A model generated the notes under the pieces. It made no database searches. It saw only the letters and a list, made by a program, of their open reading frames with translations, and had not been told where the DNA came from. This document shows positions 23,736 to 47,622 of a stretch of 64,000 nt of DNA, one piece after another (the stretch's first letter is position 1; each line of letters opens with the position of its first letter). The stretch comes from Candidatus Uhrbacteria bacterium. GTDB taxonomy: Bacteria; Patescibacteriota; Patescibacteriia; UBA9934; GWF2-40-263. Location: assembly GCA_016844925.1 (NCBI GenBank), contig JAERTI010000035.1, positions 4,949 to 68,948 on the forward strand, written 5' to 3'. A program made the translations under genes and the position numbers.

Positions 23736-25141
23736 AGATCTATCGCCTCTTTAAAAAACCAAGCATTGATCTTATGAACGAGCCAGGACGTTTCTAGCGC
23801 ATCAATCCCAGGTGTGGAGAAACTAAACTTCCATGTGTGGTCATCGTCGATTATTTCTTCGACAAGGAACCCCACATCGGCCACCAGCCATTCACCCTCT
23901 TGTCGCGGCGACTGATAGTTTGCCAACACGTAATCTACGTCGAGCTGCTCAACTGTCGCGTAGGCACTTAGTGGCGTTGGATCTGGGTCAAAATATTGCG
24001 ATGCAGAGAACGCCATCTTTCCCTCAGTCACTAGTTCCAAATCTCCGGCCGGAATCTCAACAGATTCCACACCCGCCCCCGAGAGCTCAAGCACATACCA
24101 CTGATAAGGCTCTTCTACTTCCACCTCACCACTATCCCCCGTAAGCGTTTGGACACCTTCTGCATGCTTGGTCTGCCCGCGTAGACGCTTTGAACCTGTC
24201 CAGAGTGTTGTGCCTCGTGGCGGCTCGCTGTAGCCCACCTCGTCACCAATAAAGACCGTGTTCAAGAAGACGACCTTTTGCTGTGGCGTCTGAATCGATC
24301 GGAAGAAGACGTCACGTGTCGTCGACATCACCACCTTGTACACTCCCTCGCTAAGCCCTCCTGCGGTCAGCTCCAGATGCATGACCCCGCTTGGCTGTGC
24401 CTCATCGGTACTATCTCCATCGTCCTCAGCCCGCGCCTCAGCAACCGGCTGACCCTGCTCATTGAACACGGTGATACGCACAACATCCTCGCCTTCATCG
24501 CGATTCATGTCCATGTAGTCGAAGGTAAAACGAAGCGTCTCGTCTTTGATGTACGTCTTAAACTCGTGATGCCCACGGAGCGAGACATCGATTCGCTGCT
24601 CAGCATCGGTTGGCTCATAGCCATCCAGGCGATACGGGACGTCGTAGGTGGTTCGATAGGTGGCCACACGGTCACGTGCGGGTGGACTAGCGAAGAAGTC
24701 ATCGATGGATGCGTACTGCTGTTCACGCTGAAGCAGCACAAGCTCTTCACCATTAATACGTGTCCAATCACTCTCATCAATCAGCCGGTTGTGCAGCGGT
24801 AGAAGCGTGTAAACATCTGGATCTTCTCCCGAGAAGGCTCCTAGCTCCACGATCGGCAACGTCTCATTCTGAAACCAAACTTCAAGCTGCACCGCACTAA
24901 AGTCACGATGTGGGTGCACAAAGAAAAATGCTGGATCCGACACAATCGCTTGCATCCCATCGACGGGCACCTCCACGCGCTGACTCGGTCCAATTTCATC
25001 GATGAACGGAGACTCTTCCCCGACAACATGTTCAACAAAAAACACTCCCGACGGCACAAACCACTGCGTCGCAAGCCACCCGAGAATCAGGATCGGGATC
25101 AAAATAAAGACGAACTGTGTAAAGCGTGTAAGGATGATCAT
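23732..25141 (-). CDS. Membrane-anchored extracytoplasmic protein, hypothetical (translationally coupled to the GT-C gene)
   Basis: An N-terminal TM helix precedes a large soluble domain. The start overlaps the stop of 25138-26757 by 4 nt. Confidence 0.45.
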   Translation of the reverse strand: MIILTRFTQFVFILIPILILGWLATQWFVPSGVFFVEHVVGEESPFIDEIGPSQRVEVPVDGMQAIVSDPAFFFVHPHRDFSAVQLEVWFQNETLPIVELGAFSGEDPDVYTLLPLHNRLIDESDWTRINGEELVLLQREQQYASIDDFFASPPARDRVATYRTTYDVPYRLDGYEPTDAEQRIDVSLRGHHEFKTYIKDETLRFTFDYMDMNRDEGEDVVRITVFNEQGQPVAEARAEDDGDSTDEAQPSGVMHLELTAGGLSEGVYKVVMSTTRDVFFRSIQTPQQKVVFLNTVFIGDEVGYSEPPRGTTLWTGSKRLRGQTKHAEGVQTLTGDSGEVEVEEPYQWYVLELSGAGVESVEIPAGDLELVTEGKMAFSASQYFDPDPTPLSAYATVEQLDVDYVLANYQSPRQEGEWLVADVGFLVEEIIDDDHTWKFSFSTPGIDALETSWLVHKINAWFFKEAIDL

Positions 25142-26757
25142 GGGAATATGCGATACAAACTTTCCTCATCGTATGTCTCAACGAGCTCAATACCAAGCCC
25201 CATGCCCCCCAAGCGAGACTCGTTTAGGTAATCGATGTCTTCTTGTGGGAAGGTAATGCCATAGTAGTAGAGCGGTGCGGACTCGAGCACGATCGGCATG
25301 GCTGCATACGTCGCGTCGTCGCGTAGCGGATACATCACCCGCCTGTGTGGAAAAAACAACTTGTCGGCACGATCTACGATCACGACAGCGTCTGCCTCAG
25401 TATGCCCCAAGACCGACGACTGAATCTCTGAGGAACGCTCAAGCTGAGCACGCATGATGAGCAGGCCATCTTGCCCTTGAATGAACACGGCGCTGACATT
25501 CATGCCGATCACCGCGACACACAACGCCGCCGTCAGAAACCCTCTGGCAACAGCTGTACGACCGAAACGAACCACCCAGACAATTCCCGCCGCAATCATC
25601 GGCACGGACATCAAGTACATTGGAAGCCAGTAGCGTACATAGGAGTTCGCCATGGTGATCTGCGTGGGGTCAGGATTGTCATGGATCTCCCAGGAGCCGT
25701 ACATGAATACAAGCCAGGCACTCACGAACGTGCCGAGAATAATCATTGCGCGTACATCTCGACGGTGGCGCTTTTGTGAAAAGAGTACGAATAGCCCCAT
25801 GCCCGCCAAGACACTCAGCCACCAAAACATCTCCACTCCATAGGCACTAAAGTGACGCCAAGCGTTCATTGGATGAAAACCAAACGGCAGAAGCTCGACC
25901 GCATCAAGAGAGTCACCGGCAGCAAGGTCGACAGTCTGTTCTACGGCCCCGACGGTGTACCCCGTTGTCAGTGGATGGCCATAGGTCAGATAGTTCATCC
26001 CGAGAAGCAAGCCGGCTCCAACGAGTAACCCCAGGAATCCAGCCTGCAGGCGACGAATCGAGAGAGACTTGTGCCAAACGATCGCTGCAGCCAGAAGCCC
26101 GCCTACAACCCACGTAATTTCTGAAGTCCGAACAAAGAGCGCGAGCCCCAAAGCGAGACCAGCGAGAACCTCGGCCCAGATCCCAAGACGCTTTGGACGG
26201 CACACCCAAAGCCATGCACTCAGGATAAGTGCGTCTACGAAAAGCATGTTGTGCATAAGGCCACGTGCGCTGTAATACCAGACGGCAGGATGCAAGAGAA
26301 ACAATCCGAAACTCAACGTGGCAATGGATGGTGTCGTGAATCGCTGAACGATTTGCTTAAACCCCAGCGCAGCACCAATAGTCACGAGGGGGGTAAGAAT
26401 CCAAAGCACCCACAAACCCAGAACAATTGCCGCTGTACCGTAGAGAACTGGGAGACCAAGGAAACTCCCTGGAAGAAGCTGTCCGTCGACTGTCACCGTA
26501 CTACGAGGGTGAATGCGGTCCTGGATGGCAGGATCAAGATCATACGCACCGAGATACCCCCCCGCGTCAAACAGCGTCGATGCAACATACGCGTTAGCCG
26601 TCTCGTCTGGTGACACGTAGAGATTTGCTGGATTCACGAGCGCGAGAGAGCCAATAAAAAAGATAATGGCAACCAAAATCATAAACCCCCTCGAGACCCT
26701 CGGGGGGCATTTCACATCCTTTCCCTTTATCGATGTGCGCTTCAAACTAGAGGCCAT
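25138..26757 (-). CDS. GT-C fold membrane glycosyltransferase (PMT/ArnT-like, GT39/GT83-type)
   Basis: About 11 TM segments are present. The first extracytoplasmic loop carries the DE motif (SPDETANAYV). The long hydrophobic core is typical of polyprenyl-phosphate-sugar dependent transferases. Confidence 0.55.
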   Translation of the reverse strand: MASSLKRTSIKGKDVKCPPRVSRGFMILVAIIFFIGSLALVNPANLYVSPDETANAYVASTLFDAGGYLGAYDLDPAIQDRIHPRSTVTVDGQLLPGSFLGLPVLYGTAAIVLGLWVLWILTPLVTIGAALGFKQIVQRFTTPSIATLSFGLFLLHPAVWYYSARGLMHNMLFVDALILSAWLWVCRPKRLGIWAEVLAGLALGLALFVRTSEITWVVGGLLAAAIVWHKSLSIRRLQAGFLGLLVGAGLLLGMNYLTYGHPLTTGYTVGAVEQTVDLAAGDSLDAVELLPFGFHPMNAWRHFSAYGVEMFWWLSVLAGMGLFVLFSQKRHRRDVRAMIILGTFVSAWLVFMYGSWEIHDNPDPTQITMANSYVRYWLPMYLMSVPMIAAGIVWVVRFGRTAVARGFLTAALCVAVIGMNVSAVFIQGQDGLLIMRAQLERSSEIQSSVLGHTEADAVVIVDRADKLFFPHRRVMYPLRDDATYAAMPIVLESAPLYYYGITFPQEDIDYLNESRLGGMGLGIELVETYDEESLYRIFP

Positions 26758-27325
26758 AGGTAAACAGACTGATTATGGCAAACACCACAGCGAGCGAGAG
26801 CGTGCCGACACTGATTGGAATAAACAGGTCGAATCCTGCCCACAGAGCGATGAGCAAAAGTAATACTCCTGTGACCTGGAGAAACATCTTCGTTTTTCCA
26901 AATACATTCGCTGAAACAATTTTCCCGTTGTGCTTACGAATGACTCCTCCTGCGATAAGGAGGGCTTCAACAAGCACAATCAGCAGTCCAAAGAACAAGT
27001 TCACATGCTGCACGACAACCAACAGAACTACAGACCCAATGAGGATCTTATCGGCCAGAGGGTCATAGAAGGTTCCCCACTCGGTAATCTGCTTGCGAAT
27101 CCTTGCGGTCGATCCATCCAAGGCATCCGTAAACGCGACAAATAAAAATAACGGTATGCCTACCGAAAATTGCTGTACATAGAGTAACCAAAGCACCACT
27201 GGTGTCATCACGATCCTGAACATGGTAATCATGTTCGGTGTAACAAATGGGGGCACCAGCGGGACAAATGTGTAGCGCATGATGTGATCGTGTGGAAACA
27301 GCTTTGCCGGATCGCGCTGAGACAT
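26747..27325 (-). CDS. CDP-alcohol phosphatidyltransferase family protein (PgsA-like)
   Basis: The gene was trimmed to the ATG at 27323-27325 (MSQRDPAKL). The family motif is DALDGSTARIRKQITEWGTFYDPLADK (D-G-x2-A-R-x8-G-x3-D-x3-D). Confidence 0.7.
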   Translation of the reverse strand: MSQRDPAKLFPHDHIMRYTFVPLVPPFVTPNMITMFRIVMTPVVLWLLYVQQFSVGIPLFLFVAFTDALDGSTARIRKQITEWGTFYDPLADKILIGSVVLLVVVQHVNLFFGLLIVLVEALLIAGGVIRKHNGKIVSANVFGKTKMFLQVTGVLLLLIALWAGFDLFIPISVGTLSLAVVFAIISLFTYGL

Positions 27326-27344
27326 AGTAAACTTACTGAAGATT

Positions 27345-29477
27345 ATGCTCCGTCGACTCCATGCTACCATCTTTGCAGTGCTGTTCCTAGCGCTTTTTGT
27401 GGCCAACACCTTCCTCATTGGGAGCGTGTTTTTTGGTGGTGTTTTGCTCGCTTTGTACCTAGGAGCGTTTGGCTGGGAGCTTGGCGGCATCATCACAAAG
27501 AGCGAAAAGGCTGTTCTGCGGTGGTGGCTTGGAATCTGGGTGCTCTTGAGTATTCTCCTAACGGTTTTGACTGCCAGCTACTACCTTTGGGCGATTACCG
27601 CCACAATGGTGCATATTGTCATCCTGCTCACACCCCCTATTCTGCTCGTTGCCGCACGTAAAACAGCTCACCGATCGCTCTTTGCCCATGCTCACAATCT
27701 CTGGAAAGAAAAGCGTCACCGTGTTCCTAATACGGTCTGGATCGTGGCCGCGGGGTCACTCCTACTCCTGAGCCTCCTGTTCTCCGTCTTGGGCGCCCAC
27801 CCTGTCACAGATGCGGTCCGCTCCGTCTGGGAACGACTCCCTGAGAGTGTCTTCCTTCTCCTGTTGTTATCGACAGCACTCGTCTTCGCCTTGCTCTGGC
27901 GCGGACGAGAACGCGCACTCTCGCTCGTCTTGCTCTCAGTACTGCTGTTTGCTGCCATCAGCGTCGCGGCGATTGTCTTCCCGCTGGGTTTTGGATTCGA
28001 CTCGTTCATCCACAAAGCAACCGAGGCCCACTTGGCGGAGTTCGGTACCATCACCCCTAAGCCTTTCTACTACATTGGTCAGTACGCTCTGGTCCTGCTC
28101 GCCCATCACGGCTTTTTGATTCCCATCGATCTTGCCGATACATTTCTTGTCCCCGTCCTGACAGCCCTGCTACTCCCCATGGCTTGGTACTTTGCTGCGG
28201 CACACATCGTCCGCAAAAAGTCCGTCGCCATGCTCACGCTCTCAGGCATGTTCCTACTCCCGCTCTCAAGCTTTATCGTGACTACCCCTCAAGGCCTGGC
28301 AAACCTCTGGACGCTCCTGCTCATCCTCGCGTCGATTCCCTACCTGCTTGAACACGAGCACCCACGCCTGCGCGTGCTCGCCCTCGGCGCCATTGCCACG
28401 CTCTTGATCCACCCCATCGCCGGCATTCCAACCCTCCTCTATTTCATGTTCCTGGCGACAGATCCTTCGCGCACAAATCCCCGCACCCCCACAACCAATC
28501 GCATTGTCCGCATTCTGCTCATTAGCTTCGCTTCCATCGTGCTCCCACTGAGCTTTGCCGTGAACGCCTTCATCAGCGGACAGTCGCTCGGTATTGATCT
28601 GGCTGCCCTCAACCCCCTCACCTGGTTTTCTAACCTGAACCTGACCGTCTTTTTCGAGAGTCGATTCGATCCACTCCTAGACATCGTCTACCTCTACGGC
28701 CTCAACGCCATGCTCGTCCTTGTTATCTTGGCGACCTTTGCTTGGTTTGAGTACCGCAAAGAACTCTCACGACGCTTCCGCGCCATCCTCCTGATGGTCA
28801 TGGCACTTGCCATCAACTACTTCATCATGTCAGGTGCGCTCGAGTTCACCTTTCTCATCGATTACGAGCGCGCCAACTACGCAGCACGCCTTCTCCCTCT
28901 CATAGGGCTCTTCCTGACCCCATACGTCATCCTCGGCCTGGGTCACCTGTTCATGAACATCAAAACCCAACCCGTCATCCTCCGCGGCGGAGCACTCGTC
29001 CTCCTCGTCGCGATCGCCACATCCAGCGTCTACATGGCCTATCCCCGACGTGATGCCTATGAGACCAGTCGAGGATTTAACGTGAGCCAAGCAGACATCG
29101 ATGCCGTGCACCTCGTTGAGAGCCTCGCAGGTCCGCAGCCGTACCTCGCTCTGGCGAACCAGTCCGTGAGCGCGGCGGCGATTTCCGAGATTGGCTTCCA
29201 GTATTTCGAGGATCTCTTCTTCTACCCCATCCCTACCGGCGGCGCTCTCTACGAGGTCTTCCTACAAATGAACGAACAACCCTCTCGTGAAACCGCCAAG
29301 CAAGCCCTTAATCTCGTGCCACAGCACGGCGATGTAAACCGACTCTACTTCCTGGTCAACAACTACTGGTGGCAAGCCCCTCGCATCATCGAGACCGCGA
29401 AGACCACAGCCGACGACTGGCGCTCCGTGGGCGAAGAGGGGCAGGTGTACGTGTTTGAGTATCTATTCGACTATTAA
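27345..29477 (+). CDS. Large polytopic membrane protein (~710 aa), paralog of 56059-58125; possible GT-C/YfhO-like transferase
   Basis: It has more than 15 TM segments. Blocks shared with 56059-58125 include GFGFDSFIHKATEAHLAEFG vs GFGFDPFIHRAAETALVHNG, and YYIGQYALVLLAHHGFLIPID vs LYLGQYALIAGLNLLTGIPV. The C-terminal soluble domains also match (YWWQAPRIIETAK..VYVFEY vs DNWPEAGRIRAQ..VVIYEY). Confidence 0.55.
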   Translation: MLRRLHATIFAVLFLALFVANTFLIGSVFFGGVLLALYLGAFGWELGGIITKSEKAVLRWWLGIWVLLSILLTVLTASYYLWAITATMVHIVILLTPPILLVAARKTAHRSLFAHAHNLWKEKRHRVPNTVWIVAAGSLLLLSLLFSVLGAHPVTDAVRSVWERLPESVFLLLLLSTALVFALLWRGRERALSLVLLSVLLFAAISVAAIVFPLGFGFDSFIHKATEAHLAEFGTITPKPFYYIGQYALVLLAHHGFLIPIDLADTFLVPVLTALLLPMAWYFAAAHIVRKKSVAMLTLSGMFLLPLSSFIVTTPQGLANLWTLLLILASIPYLLEHEHPRLRVLALGAIATLLIHPIAGIPTLLYFMFLATDPSRTNPRTPTTNRIVRILLISFASIVLPLSFAVNAFISGQSLGIDLAALNPLTWFSNLNLTVFFESRFDPLLDIVYLYGLNAMLVLVILATFAWFEYRKELSRRFRAILLMVMALAINYFIMSGALEFTFLIDYERANYAARLLPLIGLFLTPYVILGLGHLFMNIKTQPVILRGGALVLLVAIATSSVYMAYPRRDAYETSRGFNVSQADIDAVHLVESLAGPQPYLALANQSVSAAAISEIGFQYFEDLFFYPIPTGGALYEVFLQMNEQPSRETAKQALNLVPQHGDVNRLYFLVNNYWWQAPRIIETAKTTADDWRSVGEEGQVYVFEYLFDY

Positions 29478-29572: not shown

Positions 29573-30346
29573 TCAGCCAGCCACCAGCGTCGGCTCGATG
29601 CCGCGCCGGGAAAACCACTGCGTCCGCTCGGCGTAGAGCGTGAGCAGGAGGTTCATGGGGCTGATGCCGCCGGTCTCCCAGGCCTGGGTGAAGGCATCAG
29701 ACACCGGGGCGGTCTCTCCGGTCAAGATGGCGTGCGGACGCCCGGCTCCGACGATGGAACCTGTGGTCAAACGCTCACCACCTCGAATCAGATCGATCAG
29801 ACGCTTCTGCCCAACCGGACCACCCTCGTCCCAGTGCCGCAGCAGCGACGTCACCCAGAAGTTGGGGTCCAGAAGGGTCCTGTCGAGCTCCGTCTCATCG
29901 AACTCACAGAGGAAGAACGACGCGCGCACGAGACAGGCTCCGCCCATCCGCGCTCGCGTGAAGTTGCTGCGCTTGATGCGCGCCTTCCACAGCACGGCGG
30001 AGCTGAGATCCGCACCCACGAAGGACACATCTCGATTCACCACCACGCCGGACAGGTTGGCTTCGGATAGATCCGCGCCATCGAAGCGTGCGTCCATCAT
30101 CTGGGCACCTGACAAATCGATCCCCGCGAGATTGGATCCATGCAGGTTCGTTCCCATCAACGACACACCTCGCATCTGCGCCCCGTCGAAGTCGAACCCG
30201 TGCAGGTCCATCTCGTCGAGGTTCACGCCGTCTAGGTTTCCTCGAACCCGAAGCTCCTCAGGCTTCCTTCCCTTTCCGTTGTTCGTACGCCACTCCACCA
30301 AGACCTCAGGCCCAGCCGAAATGGCACTCATAGCACTCAAATGCAT
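29573..30346 (-). CDS. Pentapeptide-repeat protein (MfpA/Qnr-like right-handed quadrilateral beta-helix), high-GC foreign-type
   Basis: The gene was trimmed to the ATG at 30344-30346 (MHLSAMSAIS), with an aaaggaga SD 6 nt upstream. It carries tandem A(D/N)LxG pentapeptides (NLDGVNLDEMDLHGFDFDGAQMRGVSLMGTNLHGSNLAGIDLSGAQMMDARFDGADLSEANLSG). GC3 is saturated. Confidence 0.7.
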   Translation of the reverse strand: MHLSAMSAISAGPEVLVEWRTNNGKGRKPEELRVRGNLDGVNLDEMDLHGFDFDGAQMRGVSLMGTNLHGSNLAGIDLSGAQMMDARFDGADLSEANLSGVVVNRDVSFVGADLSSAVLWKARIKRSNFTRARMGGACLVRASFFLCEFDETELDRTLLDPNFWVTSLLRHWDEGGPVGQKRLIDLIRGGERLTTGSIVGAGRPHAILTGETAPVSDAFTQAWETGGISPMNLLLTLYAERTQWFSRRGIEPTLVAG

Positions 30347-30471
30347 GCGAATGTCTCCTTTACAGACCTTCGCCAAACCAAGTGCGTCCCCACGGCAAGA
30401 CTAGAGAACGGGGGTTAAAAAGTCAAAAGAAAAGAGAGACTCGTGGAGTCTCTCGACCGAGGCAGGCTCGG

Positions 30472-32272
30472 TCAGTCGCGAATGGTGAGCTCGCTTTGCA
30501 GACGCTCGAGCTCGGTGAAGAGCGGACTGCCTACACGTAGTTCGTCACGTGTTCCTTGTGCCACCACACGCCCCTCGTCCATCACCACGATGTGGTCGGC
30601 GCGCTGGATGGTGGAAAACCGGTGAGCAATGACGATCGTCGTGCGCCCCTGACGAAGCTCCTCAAGCGCGGCTTGAATCCGCGCCTCGGAAATGACGTCT
30701 AGGTTGCTGGTTGCCTCATCGAAGATGAGCAGGCGTGGATCCCGCAGGATCGCACGAGCGATGCCGATGCGCTGACGCTCCCCTCCAGAGAGGTCAAGGC
30801 CCTTCTCACCGACAATGGTGTCGTACCCATCAGGCTTGCGCTCGATGAACTCGTGCGCGCCAGCCAGATCGGCGGCAGCGCGGATCTCTGCCTCGCTCGC
30901 ATCCGGACGCCCGTAGGCGATGTTGTCTCGGATGGAGATGGAGAAGAGCTCCACATTCTGCGGCACGATGCCGATCTGACGCCGCCAGTCCTCGAGGTTG
31001 AGAACCCTCAGATCGTCTCCGTCGACCTCAATGGCGCCGCTGTGAACATCGTAACCACGCAGCAAAAGCGTCACGAGGGTGGACTTCCCCGATCCGGAGG
31101 GTCCAACAAGTGCCACCATCTCTCCAGAGTGAGCCGTGAAGCTCACATCCTTCACACCCGTTCCGTTGCCGTCGTAGGAGAACGATACTTGATCGAAGAC
31201 GACATCACCCTCCAACCTATCCATCCTGATCGCTGTGGGGAGCGATACCACCTCGGGCTGCTTGTCCAGCAGGTCCATGAGGTGCATGAGTGCTTCCTGG
31301 TTGCGCCCCAGCTCCATCCACTCTCGTGTCACAGTGCGACACGAACGAATGAGCCGGTCGTTCAGCTGCAGGAGCATCACCATGGTTCCCAGGGTGAGGG
31401 TGTTTGCCTCAAGGCCCCAGAGCCCGATCAAGATCACCAACGCTCCTGAGATGTTGGCCATCCCGTCACGGAGATATCCCCCAAGCATGACGCGTGCCCA
31501 CTGCACCCACTCCACCGATCGAATCTTCGCAAGAATCTCCGAAATGCGGCCACGCTCGTGTTGCTCGCGACCGAACGCTTGGACCGTTGCGATGTTGCCG
31601 AGCGCCTCGTACCCAATGGTGCTTGACCGTTGGTAGAGCTTTTCCATTCTCTGCCGGTAGGCTTTCAGCGACCTGAAGTCGTAGGCAACCCACACGCCGG
31701 TGATCACCCCTAGGACCAAACTCAGCACCCCGACACGCCACTCAAGGATCAGAAGAGCAACTGAGAAGACAGGGATGGTGAGCACCTCAGGAAGAAGCCT
31801 ACCAAACACGCGGTCGGTTAGCTGACTCGCGGCGTTCACACCACGGTCGATCTTGGTGATCTGCTTGCTGGTGTTCTCCTGGACGTGGTGCCCGATGGAG
31901 AGCTTGAGCAAGTGACTCATGGTGAGCACTGGCATGCGCTCGCTCATGAGCAAGTACAGCCGGAGCCAGGTTCGCTGGTTGAGTACTCCCACCGTGCTGG
32001 AGGCGACCTCCACCAACACTTTGGCCAGCAAGATGACACCAGCGAGCCACCACATGGTGTTCGTCTCCGGCATCCATCCGCGAAGAGCCTCGACGGTCTT
32101 GACCTCAGCTCCCATCTGCGGCATGCCCCAGACGTTGATGAGGTCGAAGACCAGCTTGTTGATGTACGGGGCGGCGAGCCCCATCACGGTCACCATAGCC
32201 ATCAGGCCCATGGACCAGATGATGTCACGTTTGAAAGGACGAATGAGCGCCCAGTACCTTCTCCAGAAGTTC
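30472..32272 (-). CDS. ABC transporter, fused permease-ATPase exporter (MsbA/MDR type), high-GC foreign-type
   Basis: The ATG is at 32270-32272, preceded by ggagg. A 6-TM domain is followed by an NBD with Walker A GPSGSGKST, the signature LSGGERQRIGIARA and Walker B LLIFDEATSNLD. GC3 is saturated. Confidence 0.85.
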
Positions 32273-32331
32273 ATGTCGACCTCCAATTTGTTCTAGGCGA
32301 ACGCAGGAAAGTACCTAATTTTGGGGATTTT

Positions 32332-32367: not shown

Positions 32368-33570
32368 TTAGATGATCGTTTTAATCTGCTCTTCCAACTG
32401 ATCGACGTAACGCTTGATCGAATATTGCTCAGCCTGAGCACGGATCTTCTGAGTCATTGACCACCAGGCATCGCGTCTATTGTGACAGCGGAGCATGCCA
32501 TCAGCCAATTGCTTTACGTCTCCCGGCTCAACGAGCCATCCTGTCTTTCTGTCTTCGATGAGCTCTGGGATGCCACCAATCTTCGAAGCAATAACAGGCA
32601 CACCTATGAGGAAAGACTCGTAGATGACCGTTGGCGAATTCTCGTAACACGTCGATGGCACAACCACGGCATCACTTGCCCGCAGAAGGTTTACCAAGTG
32701 ATTCAATGAAACGAAACCGTGATGCTTGATGCGACGATCTCGCTCGGCGCGCTGGATAACGTAGTCGCTGAGCGCACCCTCCCCGGCCACATGAAGTTCC
32801 ACGTTCTCTGGAAGCTGCTCGAGAGCATCGAACAGCTCCATAATACCCTTGTGCTTTTCAAGCTGACCGATGTAGAGGAAACGCGTCGGACCATCAACAC
32901 GCTCCCCACGTGGGTTGATCTTCCCTGCCGGAAGCGGGTTGGGTAGAACTTTTACCGGTCCCCCAGTCATCATCCCTCGCTTTTGATAAAACGTCGCAAG
33001 AAACTTCGAGGGAGAAATCACTAAATCTGGACGGCCTATTTGTGATGTGACCGCTCGCTCATACCACGTGCGAAGAAACGATGTGTTGAGCCATGATCCC
33101 TCATGACCGGCAATCAGCAGGCCGCTGGGCACACTTAGCTGAACATCGTGGAGCGTATGCACATGGGGAACTCCTTGTTTTTGGATTTCACTCCCAATTG
33201 ATACACCAATGCCTTTCAAGTTATGTGTGAGAATCACATCCGGCTCCTCATCTTGAATCACGTGACGAATGGCTCGGCGTGCAAAGGGATTGAATAGGTC
33301 AACGAGGTGCCAGAGTGCACGAATAGGAAACGCAATGGCATGATCACTTCGAAGATAATAAAAATTCAATGGAAAAAATCTGTAGACGGCTCCAAGGGTT
33401 CGTTCGCGAATAGCTGGAAACAGTGTGCGTAATCCATCGTAAGGCTGTGTGCTGAGAACAAAAACATCATGTCCACGAATATACAATTCATCCGCGATTC
33501 TCTGAGCCACCAACTCGGCACCTCCACGAGCGTCTGGTGGGTACAAATTTGAAACAATGCCGATCTTCAT
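32368..33570 (-). CDS. Glycosyltransferase family 4 (GT4, GT-B fold)
   Basis: The gene was trimmed to MKIGIVSNLYPP. It has GGAE near the N-terminus and a C-terminal EX7E-type region (ENSPTVIYESFLIGVPVIASKIGGIPELIE). Confidence 0.8.
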   Translation of the reverse strand: MKIGIVSNLYPPDARGGAELVAQRIADELYIRGHDVFVLSTQPYDGLRTLFPAIRERTLGAVYRFFPLNFYYLRSDHAIAFPIRALWHLVDLFNPFARRAIRHVIQDEEPDVILTHNLKGIGVSIGSEIQKQGVPHVHTLHDVQLSVPSGLLIAGHEGSWLNTSFLRTWYERAVTSQIGRPDLVISPSKFLATFYQKRGMMTGGPVKVLPNPLPAGKINPRGERVDGPTRFLYIGQLEKHKGIMELFDALEQLPENVELHVAGEGALSDYVIQRAERDRRIKHHGFVSLNHLVNLLRASDAVVVPSTCYENSPTVIYESFLIGVPVIASKIGGIPELIEDRKTGWLVEPGDVKQLADGMLRCHNRRDAWWSMTQKIRAQAEQYSIKRYVDQLEEQIKTII

Positions 33571-33571
33571 A

Positions 33572-37046: not shown

Positions 37047-38059
37047 ACATTCGTGAGGAGCAATCTATTGGCTTTCATATATTCAACCGTTCGACGTAAT
37101 CCATCTTCCAGTCGCACGAGCGGGAACCAGCCGAGTTCTTTGGCTCGATCGATGCGTGGCAGAGCGAGTTCTGAAAGAAAGGCGAAGCTTTCTCCTTCAA
37201 CAATCTTCGAGGAGGACTCAGTCATATCGATAATCATCTGCGCAACGTCGACAAGTTTCAGATTCACGTCACTTCCAAGGTTTACCGGCCCTGGATACTC
37301 CGGCGCTCCCATAATACGCGTAATTCCATCGATAACGTCTGTCACAAACGCCAGAGAAGTACTGAAGTCTAGACCACCATTCATCACCAGATCGCTTCCG
37401 TCAAGCGCATTAAGAACAAAATCTGGAATCAGCTGACCATCAAAGAGAGGCATGCGTGGTCCGTACGTTCGAAAGATTCTTGCGATACGAATGTCCAACC
37501 CGTGCACCTGACGATACGTCTCAAACATCGTTTCAGAAAAACGCTTTCCCTCATCGTAACAAGCGCGCGGCGTGAGGTGGTTCACCACCCCCATATCCGT
37601 CTCCTGAACAAGCGCGGTCTTGTCAGCCCGCTCCCCATACACCACAGAACTAGAAGCTAATAAAACTCGCGCACGATACTTCTTGGCAAGCTCCAAAACG
37701 TGATGGTTCCCAAGCGAGTTGGAAAGAAGTGTCTGGATCTTGAACTGATCAAAGTTTTTAATCGATGTAGGGCAGGCCAAATGATAAATCTGCTGAATGC
37801 CCTGGAATGGAAGTTTGAATGCTGCCAGTTCCCCATGACTCTCTAAATCAAAAGGCTGGTTGATGTCCAGCCGAATAAAACGAAAATTTGTGTTTTGCAA
37901 AAGAGCGTTAATGTTACTAGCATCGCCCGTCGAAAGATTATCTACACAGATCACCCTGTGCCCATCTCGAAGCAGCTGCTCACATAAATGTGAGCCGATA
38001 AACCCAGCCCCTCCAGTAACAAGAATGTTTTTGTTTTGGAATTTCAGTTCTTGCGCCAT
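37043..38059 (-). CDS. NAD-dependent epimerase/dehydratase, UDP-glucuronate decarboxylase (UXS)-like
   Basis: ILVTGGAGFIGSHL (GxxGxxG) is followed by YDEGKR (YxxxK) and typical UXS length (~338 aa). Confidence 0.65.
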   Translation of the reverse strand: MAQELKFQNKNILVTGGAGFIGSHLCEQLLRDGHRVICVDNLSTGDASNINALLQNTNFRFIRLDINQPFDLESHGELAAFKLPFQGIQQIYHLACPTSIKNFDQFKIQTLLSNSLGNHHVLELAKKYRARVLLASSSVVYGERADKTALVQETDMGVVNHLTPRACYDEGKRFSETMFETYRQVHGLDIRIARIFRTYGPRMPLFDGQLIPDFVLNALDGSDLVMNGGLDFSTSLAFVTDVIDGITRIMGAPEYPGPVNLGSDVNLKLVDVAQMIIDMTESSSKIVEGESFAFLSELALPRIDRAKELGWFPLVRLEDGLRRTVEYMKANRLLLTNV

Positions 38060-42240: not shown

Positions 42241-42268
42241 ATACAGTAGCGGCATTGTATCGATCTTC

Positions 42269-43771
42269 TTAGAAATTGTCATCCAAAGTTGTCACAGCCT
42301 CGGCAGCAAGGTCTGGCACGTAATCTTCTGCTGATTCGATTGGCTCGCCAAAGGTGTAGTTTCCGTAGAATGCATCCGATATATCGTCGATCTGCTGATT
42401 CCAGTCATCGCCATAGAGCTCAGTAGCAATCTCTTCACTCGCGATTGAACGCAGCTCTCCCCCCTTGACCACAGCATACACCGTTGGCACAGAAAGGAAC
42501 TTCACCATACGCGTACCAGGATGATAGGTCACATTGGACCCAAGAGCGATATCAGAAAGAAAATCTGAGCTCACATCCACCACAGAATCGAAGTCATCAA
42601 ACCAGGTGAAAAATACTTTTTCGTTTGGAAACGCATGACGCTTACCGTCGGTAGCATAGTAGTAGACAGAACGGCATGGATCGTTGAGATCCGTTTCACC
42701 AAGACACACGGACTTGATAAGCGTCCCGGGCTCCGCCTCAACAGGCGTAAGCACTTCCTCTTCCTCAACCTCTTCTTCTGTTGCCTCTTCCTCAGTAATC
42801 TCTTCTTCCTCCTCAGCCTCTTCCTCGATCACCTCCTCCTCATAACGCACCATCACCGAGGCAATATCATCTTTTGTTCCAACGGCCCAGATGCCCCCAT
42901 CGGACACATACGCATTTCGGAATGTGTAATTTTCATCTGTGTAATCAGTAACCGTCCATGTAGCGCCACCGTCCTCAGATCTTATGAGAATCTTGTCTCC
43001 TACCACGACCAACTCATCCCCCGACCCACGAATATCATACAGATGTTGATTCGTTACTCCGCTCACAGAGACATCTGCCCACGACACACCAGCATCTGTC
43101 GTCTTTCTAAAAATGCCACTTCGTCCAACAACGTACCCCTCTGTCGCCGACGTAAACCACACGCCGTAGAGATCGTTACTCGCAACCATGCCGAGGTTTG
43201 TCCAATTTTGACCCCCATCAGTCGTAGACAACAACACTCCTTCTGTACCCACGATCCATGCCGTGCCATCACCTATATCCTGCACTCGATACAAAGCGCT
43301 GGTAACCGGCGAGGTGACACTCAACCAAAGTTTCGCGGCCGTTTGATACGCCATGATCCTTCCGCCGGACCCGACAAGATAGGCATAGTCGTCTGATGCA
43401 TCGAGGTCATAAAGATTTTCTGTCACACTAAGAGTGACATTTCCCCACGTTGCTCCACCATCATCGGACTGGCGCATCGTTGCCCCCTCACCTATCGCCC
43501 AAACCGTATCGCCAAACGCTCCCATATCCTGCCAGTAGGCGGTGGCGTTTTGATCAAAGACTTCCCAAGTTTCCCCGTCATCTTGCGATTGAATAATGTT
43601 TCCGCTATTTCCACCTGCAAAAACCGTGTCTCCGACCTGAACCATTCCCTGTAGGCCCTGGATGGTTCCATATTCTTTTTCTTCCCAAGACCCCTCAGCT
43701 AAAACAGGGCTCACCAGAACAGAAAAAATAAGCGCGCTAACAAAAGAGATGCGATGAAATTTCATATGCAC
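42269..43771 (-). CDS. Secreted BNR/Ycf48-like beta-propeller protein with acidic linker and C-terminal domain shared with the N-terminus of 43924-47622
   Basis: A signal peptide is present. DGGxTW-type Asp-box repeats recur (DDGETW, DDGGATW, DGGQNW, DAGVSW, DGGATW). An EE-rich linker follows. The C-terminal ~120 aa (SVYYYATDGKRHAFPNEKVFFTWFDDFDSVVDV...) aligns to TVYYYGSDGQRYSFPNEKTYFSWNADFDGVVEI... of the next gene. Confidence 0.65.
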   Translation of the reverse strand: MHMKFHRISFVSALIFSVLVSPVLAEGSWEEKEYGTIQGLQGMVQVGDTVFAGGNSGNIIQSQDDGETWEVFDQNATAYWQDMGAFGDTVWAIGEGATMRQSDDGGATWGNVTLSVTENLYDLDASDDYAYLVGSGGRIMAYQTAAKLWLSVTSPVTSALYRVQDIGDGTAWIVGTEGVLLSTTDGGQNWTNLGMVASNDLYGVWFTSATEGYVVGRSGIFRKTTDAGVSWADVSVSGVTNQHLYDIRGSGDELVVVGDKILIRSEDGGATWTVTDYTDENYTFRNAYVSDGGIWAVGTKDDIASVMVRYEEEVIEEEAEEEEEITEEEATEEEVEEEEVLTPVEAEPGTLIKSVCLGETDLNDPCRSVYYYATDGKRHAFPNEKVFFTWFDDFDSVVDVSSDFLSDIALGSNVTYHPGTRMVKFLSVPTVYAVVKGGELRSIASEEIATELYGDDWNQQIDDISDAFYGNYTFGEPIESAEDYVPDLAAEAVTTLDDNF

Positions 43772-43923
43772 TCAGTATAACAGAAGACCGTGCCCGAAGG
43801 CACGGTCTTGTCTGTTCCCCAGGATCCCGATCTCGGTGAGCCAAGACGTCTAGCCGAAGCTGTCGGTCGGATGCTCGTGAGATGTATGGATAGATGGAGA
43901 GTTGCTCTTGTTAGAGCGTTTGC

Positions 43924-46900: not shown

Positions 46901-47622
46901 GACTCGACAACCTCGTCTGTCTCAACCATCTGAGCTGCGTCTGTAAGAGAAGCGAGCTCTGAAGTGATCTCGTCACCTTCAGTCAAGTCAGCTGGGTCGA
47001 AGCCCTCACCAGTAAGCCAGAAGCCATCCTGGTAACCGTTTGCACCGTCGTCTGAAACCATGCGAGCTTCGCCGTCCCAGACAAGGTAGTTGTCAGTTCC
47101 GTCTGTCCAGAGCATTCCTTCGTATCCTTCGGAAGCGTCTGTAAGAGAGTCACCAACAGTGTAGTCGACGAAGAATACGTCTGGAACATCATCGATGTTT
47201 GTGTTCCAAGCGTCTCCAGCAAGACCTACAGCAGTGTCCTCGTCCTCAATCCAGTGGATTGAACCATCACGAGCAACTGCGTATACCTTTTCGTCGGATT
47301 CGATCTTGATCCATCGTGAACCTGGGCGGTACACAATGTTTCCTGCGAGAGTGATGTCAGCGAGCTCCTCATCGGAGATCTCAACAACACCGTCAAAGTC
47401 TGCGTTCCAAGAGAAGTAAGTCTTCTCGTTTGGGAATGAATAGCGCTGACCGTCAGAACCGTAGTAGTAAACGGTTGAGAGGGTCTCACCCTTAATGAGG
47501 TCGCCGTACTCAGCGGCAGAAGCCTGCATAGGGACGAAAGCTGACAAACCTGCTGTTGCGAGAATCGTAGCAGCGGCGACAACCATCGTGAACGCTTTCT
47601 TCAATTGAAGAGAGTTAGTCAT
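43924..47622 (-). CDS. Giant (1232 aa) secreted Ser/Thr/Gly/Asp-rich surface protein (S-layer/adhesin-like) with N-terminal YYYxxDGxRxxFPNEK domain
   Basis: The signal peptide is MTNSLQLKKAFTMVVAAATILATAGLSAFVPMQASA. The protein is an uninterrupted 3.7-kb ORF. More than 900 aa of low-complexity T/S/G/D-rich, Ig-like repetitive sequence are present. No LPXTG motif was found. Confidence 0.7.
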   Translation of the reverse strand: MTNSLQLKKAFTMVVAAATILATAGLSAFVPMQASAAEYGDLIKGETLSTVYYYGSDGQRYSFPNEKTYFSWNADFDGVVEISDEELADITLAGNIVYRPGSRWIKIESDEKVYAVARDGSIHWIEDEDTAVGLAGDAWNTNIDDVPDVFFVDYTVGDSLTDASEGYEGMLWTDGTDNYLVWDGEARMVSDDGANGYQDGFWLTGEGFDPADLTEGDEITSELASLTDAAQMVETDEVVESADVSVSISGSPSASTLIAGQGIADLLHVTLENNSDSSVDLTQITLNRSGVSSDTTLANLYLFDGYVRLTDAATISDGAVTFNDASGIWTLGAGEEATLSVRSDIAASTNGQTVGLSIDSADDLSFTNGGDASGSFPMEGDVHTIASSPATFGAADFTGSTTPSASSIDPQEGYRVFERTLAVNTNELDLYAARFRNIGSIDADDVENWSLYVGGVMRGETVASEDADGYITFDLSDEPLELSTGNHQVKVLADVIGGSGRTVTVGLRNSADFVAMDQDYGQPVRATVGSSTFAAMDAGAQTVNSGSLTFTKATDSNSGDVTETASGVVLGSWTAKAFGESMKVESLRFAFTESDGDDVTLRNGAVYLDGTQVGSTAGLEANAGAGTDYTSYTFGSSFIVVPGSPATVELRADIYDSDGTDNIEAADTIIAEISDMNGVSNVQRMTSGSYVDAPDGSTVTANTLTVTAASLTVAKNGAYANQSVTDPKTAYKIGSFSVTAGTSEGVNLTDINVDLDTDTATASTDLFNLYLEYGPEGDMTTASTKGTVSETANSWSINYALEAGETIYVNVYTDIDSAISTGETVIAVTDVNGTSMLSGTSPSTTEVAGQTITIAAGSFSEFNDDHPVDAIVAADQEITAAKYRFSAANETYTITELKTSVASATAAGLVSAVNVYDGTDLVGSTIFDEDTNTSGTLTGMSVEVAANASKTLTVKYQLTSVGVGAGTSQTDVQNTLESVKIRDTNGTETTETNGTEWTSDSIIGNNLFVFASIPTITHTDLSNSTLVNGQATDLYKFTVTADANGSIAMKQFKLTTAWSDGGTADTLEVESVKLYKNGSDITSSVVIQDQDGNSVESTSGMLESDSDLVVTWSTEDSISAGETVTYTIRGTVQGFRLTGSDTVGDSVSFYLAQDSSSNGTDLFLNVGDTTTTVIELFTSAAAGNSSATNHELLWSDNSAASHSSTAGTSSTGDWHNGYLVKNLDLGSETWTK

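Follow-up and report, generated by a model that had tools for sequence, protein, structure and literature searches.

Pairs of a GT2 glycosyltransferase and a small DUF2304 membrane protein have been characterised in several bacterial envelopes, where GacJ stimulates GacI and Rv3632 stimulates PpgS (bioRxiv 10.1101/180810). The product of such pairs is a polyprenyl-phosphate-linked HexNAc that a GT-C enzyme adds to wall polysaccharides, as for GacI/GacJ with GacL, PpgS/Rv3632 with Rv3779, and EpaI/EpaJ; both of the pairs characterised by experiment serve wall-polysaccharide decoration, not proteins. In other monoderm systems, Pgf of Streptococcus mutans and GtrB/PgtC2 of S. pyogenes and S. pneumoniae, the targets of O-glycosylation are surface proteins whose genes belong to the glycosylation locus itself. 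The PIM pathway of the Corynebacterineae proceeds by GT-B steps and then by GT-C steps that use polyprenyl-phosphate sugars (PMC3229680).

The stretch analysed here (the window; 64,000 nucleotides of a Candidatus Uhrbacteria genome, Patescibacteria) carries genes of envelope glycoconjugate assembly whose order is kept in ~50 Candidatus Uhrbacteria genomes (Table 1), although the GT-C enzymes of these loci share only 30-71% identity; adjacency of the cluster genes is still seen at 30-40% protein identity. The initial annotation had read the interval 25138-47622 as a PMT/Ppm1-like pathway for O-glycosylation of the neighbouring surface protein. Most of the parts that it listed are real, but several of their positions and descriptions were wrong, and it missed the DUF2304 partner, two more GT-C-like proteins without a Pfam family, and three genes tightly linked to that of GT-C, for a PgsA-like enzyme, an exported protein of 469 aa and a four-TM protein. 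Of its interpretation, glycosylation by a lipid carrier and a GT-C enzyme is supported, and the analogy with PMT/Ppm1 is not.

Table 1. Features of the window, with matches and occurrence in related Uhrbacteria loci; counts for genes upstream of GT-C refer to the 49 loci whose upstream flank is complete, those for downstream genes to 47 full-flank loci, and those given as 0/80 to all 80 related loci.
Feature	Position	Strand	Basis	Related loci
RmlA-like sugar-1-phosphate nucleotidyltransferase, C-terminal left-handed beta-helix	17305..18387	(-)	Pfam NTP_transferase 1.8e-50	29/47, downstream of GT-C
RmlD-like reductase	20517..21479	(-)	Pfam RmlD_sub_bind 6.9e-18	27/47
RmlB-like NDP-hexose 4,6-dehydratase	21364..22365	(-)	Pfam GDP_Man_Dehyd 2.7e-77, Epimerase 1.5e-66	40/47
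NUDIX hydrolase	22362..22925	(-)	Pfam NUDIX 4.6e-12	19/47
HIT-family nucleotide hydrolase or transferase	22913..23371	(-)	Pfam HIT 7.7e-30	32/47
120-aa protein, four predicted TM helices	23373..23735	(-)	sequence only	35/47, after 469-aa protein
469-aa acidic protein, N-terminal membrane anchor, function unassigned	23732..25141	(-)	no family match	
GT-C-fold glycosyltransferase, unclassified family	25138..26757	(-)	AF2, Foldseek, motif	
PgsA-like CDP-alcohol phosphatidyltransferase	26747..27496	(-)	Pfam CDP-OH_P_transf 2.7e-29	47/49
710-aa polytopic membrane protein	27345..29477	(+)	AF2, Foldseek; no Pfam family	48/49
Pentapeptide-repeat protein, outside conserved cluster	29573..30376	(-)	Pfam Pentapeptide 2.4e-23	0/80
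Fused TMD-NBD ABC exporter	30472..32286	(-)	Pfam ABC_membrane, ABC_tran	1/49
GT4 (GT-B) glycosyltransferase	32368..33600	(-)	Pfam Glycos_transf_1 8.1e-29	44/49
GT4 (GT-B) glycosyltransferase	33572..34732	(-)	Pfam Glycos_transf_1 4.5e-37	44/49
371-aa GT2 glycosyltransferase	34986..36101	(-)	Pfam Glycos_transf_2 3.2e-14	34/49
DUF2304 small membrane protein, GacJ/Rv3632 type	36046..36378	(-)	Pfam DUF2304 1.9e-25, 89.6 bits	36/49
TM-less GT2, predicted polyprenyl-phosphate sugar synthase	36381..37046	(-)	NCBIfam, PDB	
UXS-type UDP-glucuronate decarboxylase (UDP-xylose synthase)	37043..38059	(-)	human UXS1 match	
Two tandem secreted S8 subtilases with FG-GAP repeats	38103-40220, 40180-42282	(-)	Pfam Peptidase_S8 ~1e-49, FG-GAP	
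BNR/YCF48-like beta-propeller protein	42269..43771	(-)	Pfam PSII_BNR 4.5e-24	
Terminator-like GC-rich hairpin and U-rich tract	43777..43813	(-)	~110 nt past surface-protein stop codon	
Secreted acidic Ser/Thr-enriched surface protein (S-layer-like), 1232 aa	43924..47622	(-)	composition, family	
DUF5667 anti-sigma-like protein, directly 5' of surface-protein gene	47866-48741	(-)	Pfam	
ECF sigma factor, 5' of surface-protein gene	48738-49292	(-)	Pfam	
688-aa paralogue of 710-aa GT-C-like protein	56059..58125	(-)	29% identity over 550 aa, E 6e-43	
Weak Wzy_C-like polytopic protein	60254..61786	(-)	Pfam Wzy_C 6.4e-7, 29.7 bits (cut-off 31.7)	0/80

The 221-aa TM-less GT2 is, as annotated, a short soluble polyprenyl-phosphate glycosyltransferase of DPM1 type: Pyrococcus DPMS (8e-17) and ArnC (2e-14) are its nearest matches of known structure, and among NCBIfam families PpgS (1.1e-42) comes first, ahead of AglJ (5.8e-30), ArnC (1.1e-18) and PgfS (7.9e-11). 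Since the PpgS match, at 146 bits, stays below the equivalog cut-off (370), we do not regard it as a PpgS orthologue. The DUF2304 gene follows directly (the pair is adjacent in 34/35 loci) and is predicted to encode the activating partner of the GT2. On the 5' side, the UXS stop codon overlaps the GT2 start by 4 nt, and the two genes adjoin in 26 of 35 loci; the UXS assignment holds on the match to human UDP-glucuronate decarboxylase UXS1 (1.9e-64, 221 bits, with the next family at 95 bits). Homology identifies UDP-xylose as the product of UXS and a dTDP-deoxyhexose as that of the RmlA/B/D-like enzymes, and likewise identifies the two GT4 proteins and the further GT2, listed already in the initial annotation, as cytoplasmic glycosyltransferases. 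The Rml-like genes are real, but at 17305-22365 they fall beyond the interval to which they had been assigned; the RmlD-like ORF probably has an over-called start, and because no RmlC was found in the window, L-rhamnose itself is doubtful. The NUDIX gene of the same co-directional array has a parallel in the mycobacterial PIM operon, with its MutT-domain GDP-mannose hydrolase Rv2609c (PMC3229680).

The protein encoded at 25138-26757 is indeed a multi-TM GT-C transferase with a DE motif in its first loop. Its AF2 model (pLDDT 88, pTM 0.88) gave significant Foldseek matches in the PDB exclusively to GT-C enzymes (E 1e-7 to 1e-5), among them STT3 (1.5e-7), ArnT (6e-6), ALG12, ALG9 and AglB; the best are the protein-glycosylating STT3 and AglB, with ArnT and the ALG enzymes at similar TM-scores. 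Just past TM1, S24-P25-D26 is invariant and E27 nearly invariant among 32 homologues. The description as PMT-like did not hold, and assignment to PMT/GT39 fails both by HMM and by fold ranking: the protein has no Pfam match (PMT_4TMC included), neither it nor any of 32 family members matches PMT or YfhO, and PMT structures rank poorly (E 0.02-0.13 versus 1e-7 to 1e-5 for OST, ALG and ArnT structures). Nine of the 32 relatives match the generic PMT_2 only and one matches STT3 weakly (4e-4), and a search with the profile of this family, which comprises 915 clusters (50% identity, E<=1e-30), retrieves nothing from the PDB sequences, even at E<=10. The database homologue P0001 (514 aa) begins at M26, which suggests that the true start may be 26682; the 11-nt overlap with pgsA exists only with the start at 26757 and becomes a 64-nt gap with that at 26682.

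The tightest partners of the GT-C gene are not the surface-protein gene but pgsA (immediately 5' in 69/70 loci), the gene for the 469-aa protein (adjoining in 60/64, also in L072 and L073, the most distant ones) and that for the 710-aa protein (48/49). Pfam, NCBIfam and the PDB sequences gave no match for the 469-aa protein, whose gene shares its first 4 nt with the end of the GT-C gene; the 120-aa four-TM protein encoded beyond it, without a Pfam or NCBIfam family, is a candidate flippase or accessory subunit. The PgsA-like protein, whose true start is likely M58 at 27325, scores as a PGP synthase and not as a PI-phosphate synthase (TIGR00560 pgsA 88.7 bits, cut-off 109; PIP synthase just 33.8 bits), and may simply be a housekeeping enzyme. 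Divergent from pgsA, the 710-aa protein probably also has a GT-C fold: the best nine Foldseek matches of its AF2 model (pLDDT 86) are all GT-C enzymes (STT3 3e-4, AftA 6.5e-4, AglB, AftD), at low TM-scores of 0.26-0.41, and a G-F-D-x-F-I-H motif is invariant in its family. Its 688-aa paralogue sits in a second small glycosylation cluster. By homology or fold, the GT-C enzyme is accompanied by one or two GT-C-like polytopic proteins.

A polyprenyl-phosphate-sugar synthase together with a GT-C enzyme implies extracytoplasmic glycosylation from a lipid-linked monosaccharide. We put at about even the chance that the locus encodes lipid-carrier, GT-C-mediated envelope glycosylation of GacI/J/L, PpgS/Rv3779 or Arn type with a wall or membrane glycopolymer as acceptor. 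The GT2/DUF2304 complex would place one sugar, which may be a HexNAc or, given the translational coupling to UXS, a pentose, on polyprenyl phosphate at the inner membrane face; the lipid-linked sugar would be flipped, possibly by the conserved four-TM protein; and the GT-C enzyme(s) would pass it to the acceptor outside the membrane. This acceptor would be a membrane- or wall-anchored glycopolymer with a core made by the GT4 and GT2 enzymes, perhaps a lipoglycan begun on a PgsA-derived phospholipid (PIM/LM/LAM-like logic) or a rhamnan-like wall polysaccharide whose decoration follows the GacI/J/L pattern. A lipid-primed polymer fits with the lack of a WecA/WbaP-type polyprenyl-phosphate phosphoglycosyl transferase among the window ORFs scanned, and a glycopolymer, if made, may double as the anchoring ligand of the neighbouring S-layer-like protein.

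Several observations argue for a glycopolymer: the precedent of the characterised GT2-DUF2304 pairs and their GT-C enzymes, the identity of the tightest GT-C partners, and the co-location of pgsA, GT4, HIT and NUDIX genes, which parallels the Corynebacterineae PIM operon. Furthermore, GCA_016188495.1 has the cluster in two parts on separate contigs, one with the surface protein and UXS-GT2-DUF2304-GT2-GT4 and the other with GT-C, pgsA, the 710-aa and 469-aa proteins and Rml. Against it stand the PGP-synthase score of the PgsA-like protein and the lack, within the cluster, of an acyltransferase, an inositol-phosphate synthase, an LCP ligase or a conserved exporter (the ABC exporter is a lineage-specific insertion). 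The long synteny in these small, related CPR genomes may also be partly inheritance. Sequence alone leaves both a protein and a wall or membrane glycan as candidate acceptors; we favour the glycan on the balance of these points and of those that bear on the surface protein.

The second reading, the less probable of the two, is that the GT2/DUF2304-GT-C branch acts outside the membrane to O-glycosylate Ser/Thr residues of the 1232-aa S-layer-like protein and perhaps of its secreted BNR and S8 neighbours, after the model of streptococcal Pgf or GtrB/PgtC2, actinobacterial PMT/Ppm1 or TfpW of Pseudomonas. The surface protein has a signal peptide with an AXA site, read from the sequence, and a Ser+Thr content of 293 (23.8%), about twice that of other window proteins. 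Its gene lies 12-15 genes from that of GT-C or of the adjacent 710-aa protein in five genomes (NCBI locus tags), and in the split genome it remains beside UXS-GT2-DUF2304-GT2-GT4. The Pgf locus has a matching parts list (GT-A, SDR, two GT-C) and also encodes its substrate adhesins, the GT2 also matches PgfS and AglJ, and STT3 and AglB are the best fold matches of GT-C. Two distant homologues of the surface protein adjoin Wzy_C+TPR proteins and glycan clusters, a hint that the family itself is glycosylated.

The same protein also supplies evidence to the contrary. It had been described as an ideal O-glycan acceptor, giant, secreted and rich in Ser/Thr in low-complexity repeats; secretion and size stand, but there are no tandem repeats, no internal BLASTP repeats, a minimum 40-aa entropy of 3.04 bits, and not one 20-aa window above 50% Ser/Thr. 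Known monoderm GT-C targets are poly-Ser/Thr disordered tracts, which are absent here, and known sequons, N-x-S/T included, are not enriched; we therefore reject a mucin-like acceptor. The protein consists of an anchoring module at the N-terminus, which is exchangeable, and a conserved body of ~980 aa. The full-length family is present in Uhrbacteria, and relatives have SLH or PG_binding_1 in place of the N-terminal ~240 aa, so the module is taken to be wall-binding and to need a wall ligand; the C-terminal ~135 aa of the BNR protein are 46% identical to surface-protein residues 37-163, within this module. The gene seems to form a separate transcription unit, with a terminator-like hairpin (fold z-score -4.6; equally good folding in 0/200 shuffles) and an ECF sigma/DUF5667 pair that is also found 5' of the homologues in L081, L083, L084 and L086. 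In many loci an S8 gene is found 5' of UXS. The GT-C enzyme is outside the PMT and YfhO families and travels with pgsA and the 710-aa and 469-aa proteins. Nor does the Wzy_C protein named in the initial annotation help: a sub-threshold gene exists, but it is outside the interval and the conserved cluster, 12.6 kb past the gene of the surface protein and beside a GT4 (59055-60257), and its product has no similarity to the Wzy_C+TPR proteins near the distant homologues. LPS O-antigen synthesis, which that annotation had set aside, is unlikely in a Patescibacteria genome, and the window showed no lipid A genes. The surface-protein gene is linked to the cluster as proposed, but the hairpin, the split genome and the DUF2304 precedents oppose a dedicated link.

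It is rather improbable that there is no single system, and that inherited gene order in small Uhrbacteria genomes places separate envelope functions side by side: a housekeeping pgsA, nucleotide-sugar synthesis, an unrelated GT-C, secreted proteases and an ECF-controlled S-layer gene. Synteny does reach beyond glycosylation genes to PEGA, S41 protease, HIT and NUDIX; the pentapeptide and ABC genes are inserted with the order undisturbed; the cluster is broken up in one genome; regulators and a hairpin of its own accompany the surface-protein gene; and a promoter and terminator scan found no more sites than in shuffled sequence. However, start/stop overlaps read from the coordinates join UXS-GT2, GT-C-469-aa-four-TM and HIT-NUDIX-RmlB, adjacency survives protein divergence, and a polyprenyl-phosphate-sugar synthase is useless without a GT-C, for which there are candidates in the same cluster. 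Very improbable is an STT3/AglB/PglB-type oligosaccharyltransferase transferring a GT4/GT2-built polyprenyl-PP-oligosaccharide en bloc to the surface protein: the fold matches and the one weak STT3 hit among relatives are in its favour, but GT-C has no visible WWDYG motif, a C-terminal soluble domain of only ~85 aa in the AF2 model and no PDB sequence relative, N-x-S/T is not enriched, and the window has a polyprenyl-monophosphate sugar synthase instead of an initiating phosphoglycosyl transferase.

Lipid-carrier glycosylation of a glycopolymer can be compared with GacI/GacJ/GacL of Streptococcus pyogenes and EpaI/EpaJ of Enterococcus, which form GlcNAc side chains on wall rhamnan. As there, a GT2 polyprenyl-phosphate-sugar synthase is followed by a DUF2304 partner, with GT-C, dTDP-sugar genes and cytoplasmic glycosyltransferases in the locus; the Uhrbacteria locus differs in having a GT-C of unclassified family and neither a Wzx-type GacK nor a conserved Wzm/Wzt-type ABC exporter, and the window has neither a GacO/WecA initiator nor RmlC. 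The translational coupling of UXS to the GT2 suggests that the sugar differs as well. PpgS (Rv3631)/Rv3632/Rv3779 of Mycobacterium tuberculosis, which puts galactosamine on arabinogalactan, shares the closest NCBIfam relative of the GT2, a DUF2304 protein downstream and a final transfer by GT-C, although the GT2 falls far below the equivalog cut-off and the Uhrbacteria organism is without arabinogalactan. The Arn pathway (ArnA decarboxylase domain, ArnC, ArnE/F, ArnT) resembles the locus in its UDP-GlcA decarboxylase-type SDR, ArnC-like GT2, small membrane protein(s) and ArnT-like fold; unlike ArnA, the Uhrbacteria SDR is of UXS type, with full reduction to UDP-xylose, and there is no aminotransferase, formyltransferase or deformylase, nor a lipid A acceptor.

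Among protein-glycosylating systems, Pgf and GtrB/PgtC2 share a GT-A, an SDR, two polytopic GT-C, surface-protein genes in the locus and transfer outside the membrane, but PgfM1, PgfM2 and PgtC2 belong to the YfhO family and their acceptors carry the Ser/Thr tracts missing here. Actinobacterial PMT (GT39)/Ppm1 O-mannosylation shares a GT-C with an acidic first-loop motif and a DPM1-like GT2; apart from the absence of PMT matches, the Uhrbacteria GT2 is nearer PpgS than mannose synthase and is coupled to UXS. PIM/LM/LAM synthesis in the Corynebacterineae uses PgsA1, the GT-B enzymes PimA/PimB', PimE and other GT-C enzymes, and Ppm1, with an operon that includes the HIT family member Rv2613c and the NUDIX protein Rv2609c. 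The PGP-synthase-like PgsA and the lack of acyltransferase and inositol-phosphate synthase set the Uhrbacteria locus apart, whereas a CDP-alcohol phosphatidyltransferase, GT4 genes in the neighbouring array and close NUDIX and HIT genes in conserved order, several GT-C proteins with a polyprenyl-phosphate-sugar synthase, and the fold matches of the 710-aa protein to AftA and AftD bring the two together.

The GT-C transferase lies in a conserved locus. Across 80 genome loci compared, each with a GT-C relative at 28-71% identity, the conserved order reads S8 protease, UXS, GT2, DUF2304, GT2, GT4, GT4, 710-aa protein (on the opposite strand), pgsA, GT-C, 469-aa protein, 4-TM protein, HIT, NUDIX, RmlB, RmlD, RmlA, with pgsA next to the GT-C gene in 69 of 70 loci, the GT-C gene next to that of the 469-aa protein in 60 of 64, and GT2 next to DUF2304 in 34 of 35. 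Every gene tested has its homologues in metagenome-assembled genomes under the names Candidatus Uhrbacteria, Parcubacteria or Patescibacteria. The pentapeptide-repeat gene and the fused TMD-NBD ABC exporter gene that separate the 710-aa protein from the GT4 genes are a lineage-specific insertion (pentapeptide in 0/80 loci, ABC in 1/49 loci with a full flank). The gene for the large surface protein is found 12-15 genes from the GT-C gene or the adjacent 710-aa protein gene in five genomes (NCBI locus tags), and in GCA_016188495.1 the cluster is split, one part carrying the surface protein with ECF sigma, BNR, S8, UXS, GT2, DUF2304, GT2 and GT4, and another contig carrying the 710-aa protein, pgsA, GT-C, the 469-aa protein and Rml, with >100 kb either side.

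Features of the locus and its surroundings, with occurrence among the 49 loci that have a full upstream flank
Feature	Coordinates	Strand	Remark	Loci
RmlB-, RmlD- and RmlA-like genes	17305-22365	-		
Two ORFs between RmlD and RmlA	18531-19391, 19566-20420		poorly conserved	
HIT and NUDIX genes	22362-23371	-		
4-TM protein	23373-23735	-	120 aa	
469-aa protein	23732-25141	-	membrane-anchored	
GT-C transferase	25138-26757	-		
pgsA	26747-27325	-	PgsA-like CDP-alcohol phosphatidyltransferase	47/49
710-aa polytopic protein	27345-29477	+	probable GT-C-like by fold	48/49
Pentapeptide-repeat and ABC exporter genes	29573-32286	-		
GT4	32368-33600	-		44/49
GT4	33572-34732	-		44/49
Further GT2	34986-36101	-		
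DUF2304 protein	36046-36378	-		36/49 (count limited by 10-kb flank)
GT2 (PpgS-like)	36381-37046	-		34/49 (count limited by 10-kb flank)
UXS	37043-38059	-		
Two S8 subtilases	38103-42282	-	tandem paralogues	
BNR/YCF48-like protein	42269-43771	-		
C-terminal ~135 aa of BNR protein	42329-42736	-		
Surface protein	43924-47622	-		
N-terminal ~130 aa past its signal peptide	47134-47514	-		
ECF sigma and DUF5667 genes	47866-49292	-		
~700-aa paralogue of 710-aa protein	56059-58125	-	29% identity	
Wzy_C-like protein	60254-61786			
694-aa ORF	61897-63981	-		

An AlphaFold2 model of the GT-C transferase, made from 32 homologues, was confident (pLDDT 88, pTM 0.88), and all 18 of its significant Foldseek matches in the PDB were GT-C enzymes. 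The closest structures were STT3 (1.5e-7), ALG12 (4e-6) and ArnT (6e-6), together with ALG9 and AglB, at TM-scores of ~0.5-0.58, and the PMT structures ranked far lower (Pmt4, E 0.023; Pmt1/2, E 0.13). The first-loop DE motif picked out in the initial annotation is indeed there: right after TM1, S-P-D is invariant in the homologue alignment and the next E nearly so. Since this motif is common to most GT-C(A) families, it does not discriminate in favour of GT39, and the PMT-like identity that had been proposed was not borne out by the Pfam HMMs. The ORF has no Pfam match even at E≤10, whether to PMT (PF02366), PMT_4TMC or any other family, and NCBIfam gives just one weak match, to a Leptospira 'putative glycosyltransferase' family. 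Nine of 32 family members reach the generic Pfam PMT_2 (some of them relatives at ~43% identity) and none matches PMT; Pfam YfhO is matched neither by the GT-C protein or its family members nor by the 710-aa protein. The comparison with ArnT (GT83) comes down to the fold match and an ArnC-like GT2, with no lipid A pathway seen in the window and nothing returned, ArnT included, when the family profile was searched against PDB sequences at E≤10. En bloc transfer of the STT3/AglB/PglB kind was rejected, as the WWDYG motif is absent, the C-terminal domain has just ~85 aa, and there is neither an initiator in the window nor a PDB sequence match. By every test run, the GT-C protein is outside GT39 (PMT), YfhO and STT3; it belongs to a large unclassified family (915 clusters at 50% identity, E≤1e-30) that is barely captured by Pfam.

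The prediction of a soluble, DPM1-type polyprenyl-phosphate glycosyltransferase was borne out. This GT2 has 221 aa and no TM helix; among solved structures it is closest to DPMS and ArnC, and its best NCBIfam family is PpgS (1.1e-42), followed by AglJ, ArnC and PgfS. Its score against PpgS is 146 bits, under the equivalog cut-off of 370; judged by sequence, it is thus not an equivalog of PpgS, nor a demonstrated orthologue of PpgS or GacI, and the match would not imply a HexNAc donor. Beginning 2 nt past the GT2 gene is that of the DUF2304 protein (89.6 bits; cut-off 25.5). GacJ and Rv3632, small membrane proteins of the DUF2304 family, bind the polyprenyl-phosphate-HexNAc synthases GacI and PpgS and stimulate them (bioRxiv 10.1101/180810), as is likewise the case for EpaI/EpaJ. 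A polyprenyl-phosphate-sugar synthase directly followed by DUF2304 is the arrangement of a GacI/J/L-type system, and the GT-C gene is within the same conserved locus, 9.6 kb from the GT2-DUF2304 pair.

Several of the other sugar genes expected from the initial reading were also found. The SDR is clearly of UXS type (221 bits to human UXS1 versus 95 bits for the next family), and, being translationally coupled to GT2, it suggests that the donor sugar is a pentose. After the GT2-DUF2304 pair come a further GT2 gene and two GT4 genes (Pfam), and the RmlA/B/D-like genes exist, although outside the stretch (25138-47622) in which they had been placed; two poorly conserved ORFs lie between RmlD and RmlA. 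Alongside the GT4, GT2 and Rml-like genes, no WecA/WbaP-type initiator, conserved ABC or Wzx exporter, or RmlC (3,5-epimerase) was found among the window ORFs scanned and the loci compared. Since RmlC is missing, the dTDP-sugar made here may not be L-rhamnose.

The constant neighbours of the GT-C gene include membrane proteins with little database coverage. Upstream it adjoins pgsA; at its 3' side come the genes of the 469-aa protein and then of the 4-TM protein, with a 4-nt overlap at each of the two junctions. A profile search with the 469-aa family gave noise, and Pfam on 29 of its members only weak E-set/Ig-like noise. For the 710-aa protein, none of the best 120 of 308 homologues has a precomputed Pfam assignment, and an invariant G-F-D-x-F-I-H motif runs through the family, both window paralogues included. 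Its AF2 model is confident (pLDDT 86), and the significant PDB neighbours are all GT-C enzymes, as are all of the top nine matches (STT3, AftA, AglB and AftD), at TM-scores of only 0.26-0.41. The profile search with this family returned noise only, and hhalign found it unrelated to the GT-C family (probability 1.2%). The HIT and NUDIX genes point in the same direction as pgsA and the GT-C gene in most Uhrbacteria loci. A similar grouping occurs in the Corynebacterineae PIM operon, with Rv2613c, PgsA, an acyltransferase, PimA and the MutT-domain protein Rv2609c (PMC3229680).

The giant secreted protein put forward as the O-glycan acceptor is a Ser/Thr-rich protein of 1232 aa, acidic and with a signal peptide (read off the sequence), its Ser+Thr content of 23.8% being ~2x that of other window proteins. 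It is not, however, of low complexity as had been described: it contains no tandem repeats, no internal repeats by BLASTP, no 20-aa window >50% Ser/Thr, and no enrichment of D-S/T-A/I/L/V/M/T, N-x-S/T or S/T-P motifs. A full-length family exists in Uhrbacteria, and more distant relatives carry SLH (39 bits) or PG_binding_1 (45.6 bits) instead of the N-terminal ~240 aa, joined to a ~980-aa body that is 44-46% identical. The ~130 aa that follow the signal peptide recur, at 46% identity, as the C-terminal ~135 aa of the BNR/YCF48-like protein, and Pfam has no family for this common module. As SLH and PG_binding_1 stand in for it in the distant homologues, the module is probably a wall-anchoring domain of Patescibacteria that has not been described before. 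The protein has the signal peptide, wall-binding module and large conserved body of a wall-anchored surface protein and, given its swappable N-terminus, conserved body and the module common to the BNR protein, is best described as a putative wall-anchored, S-layer-like protein with a swappable anchoring module.

The surface-protein gene is immediately preceded by an ECF sigma gene with a DUF5667 (or anti-sigma-like) gene, as also in the homologous loci L081, L083, L084 and L086, Wildermuthbacteria included; the presence of this pair in the window and four other lineages suggests dedicated regulation. Direct folding of the sequence 3' of the stop codon showed a strong hairpin and a U-rich tract, and the gene is probably its own transcription unit. 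Only this folding was informative: when 32000-49600 was scanned for promoter and terminator consensus sites, their number did not exceed that in shuffled sequence. The genes for two tandem S8 subtilases with C-terminal FG-GAP repeats separate that of the BNR protein from UXS, and many related loci likewise have an S8 gene upstream of UXS. The contig with the SLH-bearing homologue (L082, GCA_964413195.1) has many short fragmented gene calls, for example an ACR_tran transporter in at least 5 pieces, which points to frameshifts or misassembly in that genome. The 64-kb window has a GC content of ~50%, no tRNA gene and no Rfam match; its 694-aa ORF, with nine MopE-type putative metal-binding motifs (Pfam 1e-81), stands out by a local GC of 68% and a strongly negative AT skew.

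The Wzy_C protein that had been counted as a component of the system drops out: it scores 29.7 bits, under the Pfam cut-off of 31.7, is located outside the proposed interval, and is present in 0/80 related loci. Strong Wzy_C+TPR proteins of 765-770 aa (76-87 bits to Wzy_C) do adjoin or nearly adjoin surface-protein homologues in two other CPR lineages (L083:5321-7633(-) and L086:14584-16881(-)), followed in one by a nonulosonic-acid cluster and in the other by Wzx, GT2 and carbamoyltransferase genes. They are candidate O-oligosaccharyltransferases for the surface-protein family; the window protein is no orthologue of theirs, as there is no similarity.

From its gene content, we have fair confidence that the locus would encode a lipid-carrier glycosylation pathway in which the GT2/DUF2304 pair joins a monosaccharide to polyprenyl phosphate and the GT-C transferase moves the lipid-linked sugar onto an acceptor outside the membrane. 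The acceptor we favour, with about an even chance of being right, is a membrane- or wall-anchored glycopolymer, because both characterised GT2-DUF2304 systems decorate wall polysaccharides and because the GT-C has pgsA, another GT-C-like protein and two membrane proteins as its constant partners and the surface protein is not among them. The window has no polyprenyl-phosphate phosphoglycosyl transferase, which fits a lipid-primed polymer; the grouping of pgsA, GT4, HIT and NUDIX followed by GT-C steps mirrors, partly in gene content, the PIM/LM/LAM logic of Corynebacterineae (PMC3229680); and the anchoring module of the surface protein needs a wall ligand.

A serious rival, if a rather doubtful one, is the initial proposal that the GT-C system O-glycosylates the surface protein. 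The Pgf locus of S. mutans has the same set of parts (GT-A, SDR, two GT-C) and also encodes the adhesins that are its substrates, and in other streptococci surface proteins are glycosylated by GtrB/PgtC2. In fold, the GT-C transferase comes closest to protein-glycosylating OSTs, and two distant surface-protein homologues have the Wzy_C+TPR proteins and glycan-synthesis clusters beside them; known monoderm systems, however, target disordered poly-Ser/Thr tracts, of which the surface protein has none. We consider improbable a more specific scheme in which Uhrbacteria put a pentose on the S-layer-like protein, UXS supplying UDP-xylose, GT2/DUF2304 converting it to polyprenyl-phosphate-xylose, and the unclassified GT-C with its obligate 469-aa partner transferring it to Ser/Thr of a folded beta-rich protein and not to disordered tracts. 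If true, polyprenyl-phosphate-xylose would be a new lipid-linked donor and the GT-C a new protein-glycosylating family in the Candidate Phyla Radiation. A role in LPS O-antigen was rejected, the organism being of the wrong type (Patescibacteria are regarded as lacking LPS) and no lipid A genes being seen in the window.

Candidate Phyla Radiation bacteria are attached to other cells and unable to make most of their own lipids, and we know of almost no experimental work on their envelopes. A search of the accessible literature found nothing on this locus, on S-layers or glycosylation in Patescibacteria/Uhrbacteria, or on polyprenyl-phosphate-xylose. The locus is a conserved stretch of ~30 kb that holds most of what can be recognised as envelope-glycan machinery in Uhrbacteria, and it offers candidates for glycopolymer building or S-layer glycosylation, for a probable S-layer protein and for its anchoring module. 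Its working logic resembles that of GacI/J/L, PpgS/Rv3632/Rv3779 and the Arn pathway; as streptococci, mycobacteria and the Arn system have made this logic familiar, the locus is an extension of known biology, not a new principle. The differences from these systems are in the gene set: the coupling to UXS, a second polytopic family without a Pfam model, and the unclassified GT-C family with its obligate 469-aa partner.
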